A stretch of DNA of 64,000 bases, from positions 60,437 through 124,436 of the forward strand of contig CAZNDX010000001.1 of NCBI GenBank assembly GCA_964572035.1. Reading direction: 5' to 3'. The notes beneath the pieces were generated by a model, which saw only the letters and a list, made by a program, of their open reading frames with translations, was not told the origin of the DNA and ran no database searches. This DNA comes from an uncultured Methanosarcinales archaeon. Lineage in GTDB: Archaea > Nanobdellota > Nanobdellia > Woesearchaeales > ARS49. The translations under genes and the position numbers were made by a program. Of this stretch, positions 39,116 through 55,249 are shown in pieces (position 1 is the stretch's first letter; the number at the start of each line of letters is the position of its first letter).

Positions 39116-39701
39116 GGAACCACCCTGCGAAGCTAACACGCTTTTGACCAATGACTTCTTCCACTTCGTGAAGGGATTTATTTGAAACTTCAAAAATAGT
39201 TAACGTATTGAATCTTGGCACTATTCTTTTCACGACATTCTTACCCTTGAACAAAGCAAGCGCGCCGCCATTTTCATCCTTAAAATTCTCAGAAAGATTA
39301 ACGACGTAAGCTATTTTTCTGCCCTCCAAACGATCATCATGGGGCAACAAATAATCAGTATCGCCATAAATAAAACCAGACATATCTATCGATGTTAATT
39401 TTTTACCAGTTATCTCAGAAATGAATGACAGGAATTCACGCGAGCCGAAAAATTTGTGAAAATCCTGCACAACTTTGGTTTTAGCTTTACTGCAATCGTT
39501 TGTTTGATGAAACTGAAACAAATCACTATTCTGATAATGAAACTTCTCCTTGAGCAAGGCAGACTTCAATTCCTTCGCGTTTTTGAAAAAATTAGGCAAA
39601 ACAAGATGAGGAAAAGGTTTTGCTGACTTGAAATCTTTTTTTAACTCGGAAAGCTTGCCAACATAGGAATCAGACAACCAATTCATACAATCAAAATACA
39701 C
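39108..39701 (-). CDS. 2-oxoglutarate/Fe(II)-dependent oxygenase, Tpa1/OGFOD1-like catalytic domain
   Basis: N-terminal FPHLVLPNFF, HxD in LLPHDDRLEG, a distal His in SLHEVEEV, and RVSFAGWFHG (Arg-x-Ser 2OG-binding context). Confidence 0.6.
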   Translation of the reverse strand: MYFDCMNWLSDSYVGKLSELKKDFKSAKPFPHLVLPNFFKNAKELKSALLKEKFHYQNSDLFQFHQTNDCSKAKTKVVQDFHKFFGSREFLSFISEITGKKLTSIDMSGFIYGDTDYLLPHDDRLEGRKIAYVVNLSENFKDENGGALALFKGKNVVKRIVPRFNTLTIFEVSNKSLHEVEEVIGQKRVSFAGWFHG

Positions 39702-39765
39702 AACAAACCTTTTAAACCCTTTCGAAAAGAAAATGACTAAAACTCTGAAGAACGAACCTATGATC

Positions 39766-39779
39766 TCGCCCGAGGCGGA
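39766..39779 (+). repeat. 14-nt copy of the tRNA-Val 5' end (cgaacctatgatct) located 50 nt upstream of the intact gene
   Basis: Exact match to 39816-39829. The flanking sequence does not fold as a tRNA. Confidence 0.6.
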
Positions 39780-39816
39780 ATCACAGGCTCGACTATTGCA
39801 TAGGAAATTAGACTTC

Positions 39817-39888
39817 GAACCTATGATCTAGTGGTTAGGATGCCTCCTTCACAGGGAGGATGCCCCAGTTCGAATCTGGGTAGGTTCA
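39817..39888 (+). tRNA. tRNA-Val (anticodon CAC)
   Basis: Acceptor GAACCUA/UAGGUUC, D-stem AUCU/GGAU, anticodon stem CCUCC/GGAGG with loop UUCACAG, and T-arm CCCAG-UUCGAAU-CUGGG. Confidence 0.8.
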
Positions 39889-39946
39889 TTAAGCGAAACA
39901 GATTCGAAAGTCTAGCCACTTCGTGGCTATCCCCCGAACAAGTTCG

Positions 39947-39970
39947 GGGTTCGAATCTGGGTAGGTTCAT
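39947..39970 (+). repeat. 23-nt copy of the tRNA-Val 3' end (ggttcgaatctgggtaggttcat) 57 nt downstream of the intact gene
   Basis: Exact match to the 3' T-arm/acceptor of tRNA-Val. It is preceded by two perfect hairpins (tagccac-ttc-gtggcta and cccgaac-aa-gttcggg) but lacks a cloverleaf. Confidence 0.6.
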
Positions 39971-39972
39971 AA

Positions 39973-40043
39973 GGGGTTGTGGTCCAGTGGTAAGATACAA
40001 GGTTCGGGACCTTGTGACCGGAGTTCGATCCTCCGCAACCCCA
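39973..40043 (+). tRNA. tRNA-Pro (anticodon CGG)
   Basis: Acceptor GGGGUUG/CAACCCC, 3-bp D-stem with loop CAGUGGUAA, anticodon stem CAAGG/CCUUG with loop UUCGGGA, and T-arm CGGAG-UUCGAUC-CUCCG. Confidence 0.8.
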
Positions 40044-41186
40044 TCACATCTCGAACAAAGACTTCAAAACAACAGTGGCATAACTGCCCTTTTGCAAATA
40101 GAATGAGACAACAACTTTCTTGAAACCCTTATGGCGCTCATCATCTTTCACTTCAAAAGACAAACCTTCAGGAACAACAACCAAATCACGCTCTCTCGCG
40201 ATAAAAGAGTACTTTGAAGTAAAAAAGTCCTCCAACTTCATATCTTCCACCTTGAGAACACTTTTGATAATCTCCATATTCTCCTTTGAAGTTCTCATAT
40301 CACCAGCAATCAATGGGAATGTCCCAGACAGGGACAACTGCCTCGCGAAAAACAAGCTGCCCGCCTCATACTTCACTGAAAAAAACGATTTGGACGTTTG
40401 CTTAATGAGACGCATAACACACTCATTCCAAATGTACGCTTGATACGATGAGAAAAACAACTCACGAACACCGCCAAAAACTTTGTCAAGAGCGCCGTCA
40501 AAATCCTTTGGATTCTTCGCAAGATGAGAAACAATAGACATCTCACCAGTTCGCTCAAGACCTTCCTTTCTCAAATAACCCTCGCACAACGCCCATGCAC
40601 CCCAATGAGCAAGAATAAACTTCCTCGCGTTTCTAACTTTAGCTTTCTGATGACGATTTGTAGCAGTAACTACTTTTTTGACAGCTTCTTCAACTTCACC
40701 GCGCAAAACATCCTTGGCAATAAATCCATCCGTTCCCTTCAAACTGCCAAAACGCTGGCTGTCAAAATAATTCGGAACACCCTTCTTGACCCAATCAACA
40801 TTCTTTTGCGCCCTCTCAATCTCGCCATCCCTCAACGCGCGAATCGCAATGGTGAACTTATTGCCTTTCAAACTGCCAGTTTTCAACATTTCATCAGAAA
40901 AACCAGCCAGTTCAGACTTCACGTTCTTCTCTTCAAACACTCCTTTTTGCGGGTCATCCGTTTCAACAGAAAAAAATTGAGAAGTTCTCGCGTGAGTATC
41001 CTTAAGACCAGCCACACCAATTCGCTTAAAGTTAACACCGCAACGCTTCGCCAAAACTTTCTCAGCGGCGAAAGTAGTCATATTAACCTTTGAAAGACGG
41101 AACACAGGGTACTTGCCCTTTGGTTTAATATCTACACTAGGCACTTCCTCAACAACGAAATCATCAGGAATTTCACGAAGCCTCAT
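40044..41186 (-). CDS. truD: tRNA pseudouridine synthase TruD/Pus7-like, paralog 2
   Basis: MRLREIPDDFVVEEV start (the track ORF is extended 40 codons upstream from a TTG). Motif II VAGLKDTHARTSQFFSV. The C-terminus resembles paralog 1. Start coordinate is +/-1. Confidence 0.8.
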   Translation of the reverse strand: MRLREIPDDFVVEEVPSVDIKPKGKYPVFRLSKVNMTTFAAEKVLAKRCGVNFKRIGVAGLKDTHARTSQFFSVETDDPQKGVFEEKNVKSELAGFSDEMLKTGSLKGNKFTIAIRALRDGEIERAQKNVDWVKKGVPNYFDSQRFGSLKGTDGFIAKDVLRGEVEEAVKKVVTATNRHQKAKVRNARKFILAHWGAWALCEGYLRKEGLERTGEMSIVSHLAKNPKDFDGALDKVFGGVRELFFSSYQAYIWNECVMRLIKQTSKSFFSVKYEAGSLFFARQLSLSGTFPLIAGDMRTSKENMEIIKSVLKVEDMKLEDFFTSKYSFIARERDLVVVPEGLSFEVKDDERHKGFKKVVVSFYLQKGSYATVVLKSLFEM

Positions 41187-54992: not shown

Positions 54993-55067
54993 TAGCGGGA
55001 GGTGGATTTGAACCACCGAGCTATGGGTTATGAGCCCATCGGGAACTCCTGGCTTCCCTACCCCGCT
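54993..55067 (-). tRNA. initiator tRNA-Met (anticodon CAU)
   Basis: A1:U72 terminal pair, three consecutive G:C pairs in the anticodon stem (GGG/CCC), loop CUCAUAA, and T-arm GGUGG-UUCAAAU-CCACC. These are archaeal initiator hallmarks. Confidence 0.8.
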
Positions 55068-55159
55068 GTGTTGTTGTTTGTTCTGGAAGTCTTTTATAAA
55101 GGTTTGCGTCACGAAACGTTTAAATAGCATCACACAGCGTTTTTGAATAATATCGATAT

Positions 55160-55245
55160 GCCGGCGTGGCACAACCTGGTACTGCGCGGGATTGCTAATC
55201 CCGTTTCCCGAAAGGGATTTCCCGGTTCAAATCCGGGCGCCGGCG
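55160..55245 (+). tRNA. tRNA-Ser (anticodon GCU), class II with long variable arm
   Basis: Acceptor GCCGGCG/CGCCGGC, anticodon stem CGGGA/UCCCG with loop UUGCUAA, variable stem CCC-GAAA-GGG, and T-arm CCCGG-UUCAAAU-CCGGG. Confidence 0.85.
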
Positions 55246-55249
55246 TTTT

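Follow-up and report, generated by a model that had tools for sequence, protein, structure and literature searches.

Why should an intact tRNA gene be flanked on both sides by exact partial copies of its own ends? The question is raised by a tRNA-Val(CAC) gene in a 64,000-nucleotide (nt) stretch of archaeal DNA (GenBank assembly GCA_964572035.1, contig CAZNDX010000001.1, forward positions 60,437-124,436), hereafter the window, whose own positions serve as coordinates throughout. An initial annotation of the sequence had proposed two explanations: scars of recombination or integration at a tRNA target, or the remnant of a split or permuted tRNA. The first agrees with the geometry of the locus, with a plain scar fitting poorly, and the second is not supported. 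Each partial copy is the tRNA-identical arm of a palindromic module; two such modules are fused to the intact tRNA-Val gene, and the copies are not pieces to be joined. These modules are inherited and are kept paired by compensatory substitutions, and a second tRNA-Val allele has them remade from its own sequence. Precise losses and expansions, in units of 63 nt and 81-82 nt, have occurred via their own direct repeats. Comparable modules recur at tRNA-Pro, tRNA-Arg, and tRNA-Ser genes in other archaea.

Related loci were gathered from independent assemblies with the neighboring TruD gene as the anchor, 101 loci being fetched in all (denoted L002, L003, and so on). We called tRNA genes with ARAGORN and Rfam in the window and with ARAGORN in all 101 fetched loci. 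In the window, both programs agreed on the intact 72-nt tRNA-Val(CAC) gene on the forward strand (39817-39888, Rfam score 61.4 bits), as initially annotated. The locus comprises, in order, a TATA-like box, an outer 5' copy (A), a 49-nt insert (X), tRNA-Val, a 59-nt insert (Y), an outer 3' copy (C), the trinucleotide TAA, tRNA-Pro, and the TruD stop codon. Copy A, CGAACCTATGATCT, lies on the forward strand at 39753-39766 and repeats 39816-39829 exactly; its 14 nt consist of flank base -1 and tRNA-Val nt 1-13. The length first reported for this copy was correct, and the spacing between the two occurrences is 49 nt rather than 50. Copy C, GTTCGAATCTGGGTAGGTTCAT, on the same strand at 39949-39970, is an exact repeat of 39868-39889 and consists of tRNA-Val nt 53-73 plus one base; its presence was correctly noted, with a length of 22 nt instead of 23 and a spacing of 59 nt instead of 57. 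Neither copy is a cloverleaf, as had been stated, and neither ARAGORN nor Rfam made a call over them. The other six tRNA genes of the window had no flanking self-copies that we could find.

Chance fails to account for these repeats: among 100 dinucleotide shuffles, a second 22-mer never appeared, even with three mismatches, and paired 14-mers with at most two mismatches appeared in two. We also rejected an assembly artefact, since the same arrangement is present in the independent assemblies L002, L099, and L100, and the locus is identical across these independent runs. As for the tRNA itself, its acceptor stem is unusually A/U-rich (GAACCUA/UAGGUUC), the other six tRNAs of the window having GC-rich stems, and it carries A10; G10 is usual in archaeal tRNAs.

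Each tRNA-Val end occurs in the order direct-inverted-direct. On the 5' side, A and X fold into a 39-nt hairpin (z = -2.7) on the forward strand, with A as its 5' arm. The tRNA 5' end recurs, inverted and imperfect, as the 3' arm, anti-A (AATCACAGGCTCG, 39779-39791), which pairs with 39753-39765, and a GC-rich apical stem-loop, CGCC-CGA-GGCG, lies between the arms (39767-39778). Three A·C mismatches in this pairing become G·U pairs on the reverse strand, and the hairpin of the window is predicted to be worth -16.0 kcal/mol on the forward strand vs. -25.1 kcal/mol on the antisense strand. The structure is conserved among relatives, with double changes at three pairs. One of these is a compensatory swap of the apical stem in L088 (CGGC-AAA-GCCG); the apical loop is variable. 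A linker joins the leader hairpin to tRNA-Val (39792-39815, forward strand) and is poorly conserved in the comparison among loci, being identical to the window in L004 and differing at 2-7 positions in L094, L088, and L090.

On the 3' side, sequence comparison delimited a Val-Pro spacer, TTAAGCGAAACAGATTC, extended with GAA to include the inverted copy (39889-39908, forward strand). This copy, anti-C (CAGATTCGAA, 39899-39908), reproduces the T-loop and the 3' strand of the T-stem in inverted orientation and is 100% complementary both to 39869-39878 and to 39950-39959. The spacer alone connects tRNA-Val to tRNA-Pro in L087 and is duplicated in L097. Two perfect hairpins, which had already been recognized in front of the 3' copy, follow on the forward strand (39913-39949): hp1, TAGCCAC-TTC-GTGGCTA, with a 3-nt TTC loop (39913-39929), and hp2, CCCCGAA-CAAG-TTCGGGG (39932-39949). 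A three-way junction (-33.1 kcal/mol, z = -5.3) results when these hairpins combine with a 10-bp outer stem (39899-39908 with 39950-39959), in which the first 10 nt of C pair with anti-C to close the junction. Across six variants and 24 pairs of the trailer stems, 99.3% of cells were paired, compared with 21-46% in slid controls; four pairs displayed compensatory double changes, and none was changed on one side only. Judged from sequence, these changes would fit a conserved structured RNA; they represent few independent events, and correction of a DNA palindrome could have the same effect.

Twelve related loci revealed how the modules behave over short evolutionary distances: clean presence/absence alleles of 63-nt and 81-nt units, internal duplication of modules, and decay of single copies. 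L003 carries a plain tRNA-Val only. L094 and L095, whose TruD proteins are identical, are distinguished by a clean indel of 81 nt that comprises Y and C. The outer 3' copy is exact in L085 (which has no tRNA-Pro), L088, L095, L097, and L099, and it is degenerate in L004; the outer 5' copy is degenerate in L090, which also lacks Y. In both L004 and L090, the inner tRNA is unchanged. The hairpin modules are tandemly duplicated in L088, where a 33-nt repeat takes in the flank, and in L097 a 40-nt repeat takes in the spacer. When the tRNA 3' end is counted as the start of unit one, the 81-82-nt units number 0 in L094, approximately 1.3 in the window, and approximately 1.5 in L097; they are head-to-tail units whose copy number differs between strains, as in a tandem repeat. 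Since the outer copies degenerate in some strains, the inner tRNA-Val is the functional gene, and its sequence is constant apart from one D-loop base in all loci with this allele, including those with degenerate outer copies.

An alignment of the window, L004, L085, and L003 showed that both outer copies adjoin the ancestral flank (in the case of the 3' copy, this flank or tRNA-Pro). Direct partial copies at the original flank and empty-site alleles both occur (L094 vs. L095; window, L004, L085, and L003), as in duplications of an integration attachment (att) site. All 14 fetched loci with the leader insert have self-copies flanking tRNA-Val, one of them (L090) degenerate. The initial annotation had looked to relatives for conservation of the partial copies; the arrangement is shared there and its stems are kept paired, and the outer copies are degenerate or absent in some loci. 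According to the TruD tree, both sub-clades contain loci with the full arrangement (window and L097), which makes it likely that this arrangement is ancestral and was lost repeatedly and precisely via the direct repeats. Exchange between strains is evidently also at work at this locus. Among distant relatives (TruD identity of at most 59%), tRNA-Val beside TruD is absent, and synteny is uninformative.

The second tRNA-Val allele was found in L096. Its TruD is 97% identical to that of the window, and despite this identity the same site holds a tRNA-Val(CAC) that is only about 70% identical, which indicates allelic replacement of the tRNA cassette by recombination. The leader of this allele follows the same plan with sequence of its own, a 22-nt direct repeat that contains GAGCCCATGGT being accompanied by a GC-rich stem and by ACCACTGGCTC as the inverted copy. 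An outer 3' copy is absent. The allele lies on the minus strand of its locus (2730-2803), and its acceptor stem is GAGCCCA/UGGGCUC.

Further variation surrounds the modules. The intergenic region between TruD and a 2-oxoglutarate (2OG) oxygenase gene (39702-40043 in the window) is a hot spot of gene content in L087, L088, L090, L094, and L096, where we found a DUF1003 gene and unrelated small open reading frames (ORFs) of 122, 132, and 156 amino acids with no Pfam match; no mobile-element protein family was matched in Pfam by these variable neighboring ORFs. tRNA-Pro(CGG), intronless in the window (39973-40043, forward strand; ARAGORN and Rfam), has a 13-15-nt intron in the anticodon loop in L099/L100 (2644-2728), L087 (2644-2729), and L096 (2644-2727). 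It is inverted, with a 33-nt intron, in L094/L095 (L094 2762-2867), and inverted and intronless in L090 (2679-2749).

To survey tRNA flanks more broadly, we searched the 101 loci for self-copies of at least 17 nt within 200 nt of each tRNA. Outside the tRNA-Val locus, five of about two dozen tRNA genes had self-copies of 17-30 nt: tRNA-Pro(TGG) in two Woesearchaeota (L005 and L011), tRNA-Arg(TCG) in a Nanoarchaeota genome, with self-copies at both ends and a leader hairpin of the same design (L023 2296-2531), tRNA-Arg(GCG) in an Altiarchaeota genome (L043 4575-4720), and tRNA-Ser(TGA) in a Thermoplasmata genome (L075 80-230). In the last two, 3' self-copies of 20-23 nt lie approximately 95-120 nt downstream, with hairpins in between. 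By inspection, an inverted copy lies between the direct copies at four of these five tRNAs. Downstream of tRNA-Pro(TGG), L005 (6094-6520) and L011 (6523-6840) carry tandem arrays of three to four units with a period of 93-107 nt. Each unit opens with a copy that reaches from nt 53 through the tRNA 3' end into the flank; a small covarying hairpin (hairpin a, in which three of four pairs co-vary), an inverted T-loop copy, and a second hairpin make up the rest. Several of the hairpins have C-GAA-G loops. The inverted T-loop copy follows its own tRNA, reading GGAATTGAAC in L005 vs. GATTTGAAC in L011 (AATT vs. AAAT), and the two arrays are homologous though their TruD proteins are 73% identical. 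On the tRNA-sense strand, most of these hairpins gain 3-6 kcal/mol of stability through G·U pairs, as would be expected of RNA.

Are the modules transcribed together with the tRNAs? The sole promoter-like element ahead of the tRNA-Val/tRNA-Pro pair is a TATA-like box, TTTTAAA (39710-39716, forward strand), which recurs in 14 of 15 related loci carrying tRNA-Val and, on the evidence of sequence and position, may act as a promoter. The box precedes the outer 5' copy by 31-37 nt, and L003 has the same spacing between the box and its plain tRNA; the modules are therefore probably within the transcription unit. The distance from the box to the anticodon is 130-137 nt, compared with 68 nt in L003. 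tRNA-Pro begins 3 nt after the outer 3' copy, in keeping with its initial description as following immediately. No promoter-like box precedes tRNA-Pro itself, which is presumably transcribed together with tRNA-Val. The TATA-like box is probably bidirectional and shared with the minus-strand 2OG-oxygenase gene. TTTTAAA lies approximately 12 nt from the listed GTG start (39701) of that ORF (window 39686-39716); the start is probably an ATG 15 nt further in, with a leaderless mRNA.

Our tentative reading, held at somewhat less than an even chance, is that the modules belong to a Val-Pro precursor as its structured leader and trailer; RNase P and RNase Z would remove them, and their outer copies would shield the cloverleaf. 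According to this model, the single TATA-like box would drive one precursor containing the leader module, tRNA-Val, the trailer module, and tRNA-Pro. RNase P and RNase Z would free both tRNAs normally, and the modules would be discarded or kept as small structured RNAs. By pairing with the neighboring inverted copy, each outer direct copy would hold a tRNA-complementary segment off the cloverleaf; inverted copy and decoy would neutralize each other and would therefore be kept or lost together. A thermodynamic model is consistent with such a role on the 3' side, where the T-arm of the wild-type precursor was predicted to pair with a probability of 0.76; scrambling the outer 3' copy lowered this to 0.06, and scrambling anti-C to 0.34.

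Several observations weigh against the precursor reading. In the same thermodynamic model, the inner acceptor stem had a predicted probability of 0.08 in the full precursor, compared with 0.61 in an L003-like minimal precursor, and the 5' module brought no benefit; the modules may for these reasons be neutral or mildly harmful. L003, L094, and L090 do well without one or both of them. The leader changes of L085 and L090 keep the pairing on the antisense strand only, and the antisense stability of the leader hints at a role in an antisense RNA or in single-stranded DNA. No nearby template sequence was found for hp1, hp2, or the apical stem. Perfect DNA palindromes can be maintained by quasi-palindrome correction without selection on RNA. 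The 49-nt leader insert is identical in a lineage with 83% TruD identity and changed in lineages with 94%, and because its divergence does not track that of TruD, recombination between strains blurs the argument from conservation. Finally, co-transcription, processing, and the decoy role are steps that we infer and model.

Two alternatives attribute the copies to DNA events. Elements carrying a replacement tRNA end could have entered tRNA-Val at its D-arm region and T-loop, with later deletions leaving ends of 49 and 59 nt, and arrays at other tRNAs would then represent repeated accretion at a regenerated target. Recombination at a tRNA target, as the initial annotation proposed, is compatible with the geometry: the outer copies adjoin ancestral flanks, and empty-site alleles exist. 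The gene content of the locus is also highly variable, with a DUF1003 gene, small ORFs, inversion of tRNA-Pro, and replacement of the tRNA-Val allele. Moreover, the 3' repeat starts at the T-loop and runs to the 3' end in three of five independent tRNAs with a 3' self-copy (tRNA-Val and two tRNA-Pro), and in L043 it starts one base later. This stretch is said, going back to Williams in 2002, to be the classical identity block of T-loop-type tyrosine integrases. Integrating elements of archaea are known to leave partial tRNA genes behind, as footprints of integrase-bearing elements of 9-23 kb (PMC9897764), and in Prochlorococcus islands repeated integration is marked by partial tRNAs in arrays (bioRxiv 10.1101/2020.12.28.424599). 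However, no integrase or other gene lies between the repeats in about 12 variants or in the five other tRNA cases, and the intervals are uniformly 50-120 nt with a common plan, which random decay of kilobase-sized elements would not yield. An inverted tRNA-end copy between direct copies is foreign to att scars, and here the inverted copies co-vary with the local tRNA allele. In addition, the right-hand boundary of the repeat differs by strain (22, 23, 33, and 40 nt), the 5' repeat stops at the start of the D-loop, an unusual integrase target, no second copy of the insert sequences exists in the window, and neither the tRNA ends nor the trailer insert had a match among 2.9 million viral contigs. 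A plain scar thus fits poorly, given an interval of 49-59 nt, inverted tRNA-end copies, compensated hairpins, and their rebuilding in L096, and we regard it as rather unlikely. We likewise judge unlikely that the modules are selfish or neutral palindromic tandem repeats, generated when fork stalling or template switching at a heavily transcribed tRNA gene prone to hairpins copied the tRNA end inverted and then direct, multiplied by slippage, and kept paired by arm-to-arm correction. The direct-inverted-direct order at both ends suits such errors, as do boundaries at small palindromes (the 5' copy breaks off halfway through CTAG, and the TTCGAA core of the T-loop opens the 3' copy) and the variation among strains in the number of units and internal modules. 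The substitutions in the trailer stems are all paired, as arm-to-arm correction would also give, and the strand preference of the hairpins differs between loci. Nonetheless, the apical stem, hp1, and hp2 do not derive from nearby sequence, G·U pairs favor one RNA strand in most modules, and arrays persist at 73% TruD identity and across both sub-clades despite the ease of loss via direct repeats.

The other two alternatives concern RNA. TruD is convergent with the tRNA genes, and its stop codon adjoins the 3' end of tRNA-Pro on the opposite strand (40043-40046), so that any 3' untranslated region or read-through of TruD would be antisense to both tRNA-Pro and tRNA-Val. The leader hairpin could then act on the minus strand as the 3' end or terminator of a TruD transcript that runs antisense through both tRNAs and ends at a T-rich tract. 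In six of seven variants, the hairpin is nearly perfect when read antisense (13 + 4 bp, -25.1 kcal/mol), the L085 and L090 changes yield G·U pairs on that strand only, and three TTTT runs follow within 10-30 nt of the hairpin on the minus strand. Yet the equivalents in L096, L023, L005, and L011 either lack a preference for the antisense strand or favor the sense strand, archaeal termination requires only oligo-T, and a terminator would leave the 3' module and the tRNA-copying arm unexplained; we consider it improbable. Even less credible, and in our view very improbable, is the second explanation of the initial annotation, by which the outer fragments would be exons of a split, permuted, or intron-interrupted tRNA joined by splicing endonuclease and RtcB. 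RtcB and archease are indeed encoded in the window, along with TruD, and exact excision of 63 or 81 nt would restore the same tRNA; DPANN archaea are also reported to have splicing endonucleases of broad specificity (PMC5829648). Nevertheless, an uninterrupted, high-scoring tRNA gene is present. We scanned 39730-39985 for strict bulge-helix-bulge (BHB) motifs (3-nt bulge/4-bp helix/3-nt bulge) and found none spliced in the repeats with a 63-nt or 81-nt excision; relaxed motifs were not exhaustively searched. A Nanoarchaeum-type split tRNA was rejected because the 72-nt gene is intact and the outer copies (nt 1-13 and 53-73) come with no second body piece, and a permuted one because a 5' copy upstream and a 3' copy downstream is the normal order. 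With the inner tRNA unchanged, the outer copies carry mutations in L090 and L004 and are absent from L003, L094, and, in the case of the 3' copy, L096. With no BHB in register, a normal order, and outer copies that decay or vanish on their own, we rejected split, permuted, and intron readings alike. RtcB and archease are explained by ordinary anticodon-loop introns, since the tRNA-Pro of relatives has introns of 13-33 nt at this locus.

We also searched for other sources and identities of these sequences. A decayed tandem duplicate of tRNA-Val was rejected because it is precisely at nt 53 that identity falls from 100% to the level of random sequence, and on inspection the 72 nt ending at the outer copy do not resemble the tRNA. 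The leader insert is unlike the sequence upstream of the outer copy, which rejects a tandem duplication of the upstream flank as its source, and a miniature inverted-repeat transposable element or other dispersed repeat was rejected because no further copy of the leader insert or trailer hairpins was found in the 64-kb window with up to three mismatches. In the search for a viral att site, no exact match was found in the 2.9 million viral contigs of IMG/VR to the 3' end of tRNA-Val, the trailer insert, or the tRNA-Pro ends of L005 and L011, a collection in which elements of DPANN archaea may be under-represented. Across 39700-40060, only the two tRNAs passed the Rfam gathering score, other matches reaching 13-22 bits, far under their thresholds. 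With no near-threshold match and no box motifs by eye, a ribozyme and a C/D or H/ACA guide RNA were rejected, and so was a hammerhead, whose core the strands of the three-way junction do not suit.

The modules described here may have arisen in either of two ways. Template switching at the hairpins of the D-arm and T-arm could have produced a local duplication and inversion, or selection for pairing could have reshaped miniature scars of att type. An att-scar origin fits the geometry and the T-loop boundary and does not fit the size, the inverted copies, or the co-variation. A template-switch origin fits the layout, the palindromic boundaries, and the copy-number variation and does not fit the extra hairpins.

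The remaining features of the region can be stated briefly. TruD, a tRNA pseudouridine-13 synthase, is encoded on the minus strand (40044-41186; Pfam PF01142, E = 5e-71), with the exact product on record, and its homologues indicate a Woesearchaeota-like DPANN archaeon. Elsewhere in the window (54993-55246), a divergent tRNA-Met/tRNA-Ser pair 91 nt apart shares an 11-nt inverted T-loop match, GGTTCAAATCC, which is most likely just the conserved T-loop.

Taken together with the cases at other tRNAs, the modules could form an undescribed class in DPANN and some other uncultured archaea: tRNA-anchored structured repeats, each with a direct and an inverted copy of a tRNA end plus hairpins, present singly or in three to four units. 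They would either belong functionally to the pre-tRNA, as folding insulators or as precursors of small RNAs, or constitute a new kind of miniature mobile element that targets tRNA genes and rebuilds its arms from the target; we regard this as possible, if doubtful. Our literature search found the integration-scar framework and no account of gene-free 50-100-nt hairpin units with inverted self-copies or of short-period arrays of tRNA ends. If the modules are as they seem, archaeal tRNA genes would recurrently gain structured flanks from their own ends, which annotation pipelines would miss or read as tRNA fragments. The locus would then offer a polymorphic, population-level system for the disruption and extension of tRNA genes (intron gain, fragmentation, and att-site evolution), and it would bear on whether tRNA-complementary RNA segments in a precursor must be neutralized. 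With the presence or absence of tRNA-Pro introns and the replacement of a tRNA allele in near-identical strains, it would also be a natural experiment in tRNA gene dynamics. If the modules are inert scars, their value lies mainly in a caution for tRNA annotation.

Several known systems resemble these modules in part. As in att duplications, a direct partial tRNA copy stands by the ancestral flank, the gene is regenerated, the repeated block runs from the T-loop to the 3' end, and relatives have empty sites. Known att cases, however, enclose integrase elements of 9-23 kb (PMC9897764), whereas here 49 and 59 nt separate the repeats in the window, the intervals are gene-free in relatives as well, both tRNA ends are involved, and each interval holds an inverted tRNA-end copy and covarying hairpins. 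The tycheposon islands of Prochlorococcus share with L005 and L011 several direct partial copies of one tRNA downstream of an intact gene; in the islands, these copies are separated by kilobases of cargo or decayed elements, in contrast to the period of 81-107 nt and the shared unit architecture observed here.

Split and tri-split tRNAs and non-canonical introns, known from Nanoarchaeum and Thermoproteales, likewise combine tRNA pieces and adjacent complementary sequence in a small archaeal genome with RtcB and archease. Here, by contrast, the gene is intact, the junctions have no BHB, and the fragments duplicate existing sequence and are dispensable. Quasi-palindrome and template-switch rearrangements also place a short segment in direct-inverted-direct order with breakpoints at small palindromes, but they do not match the extra hairpins, which have no local template, or their maintenance over divergence with compensatory changes. 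The spacers and processing stems of stable-RNA operons are similar in having conserved leader and trailer helices that are removed in maturation. Those stems pair leader with trailer around the product, whereas at the tRNA-Val locus each flank folds on itself, using the adjacent copy of the tRNA end.

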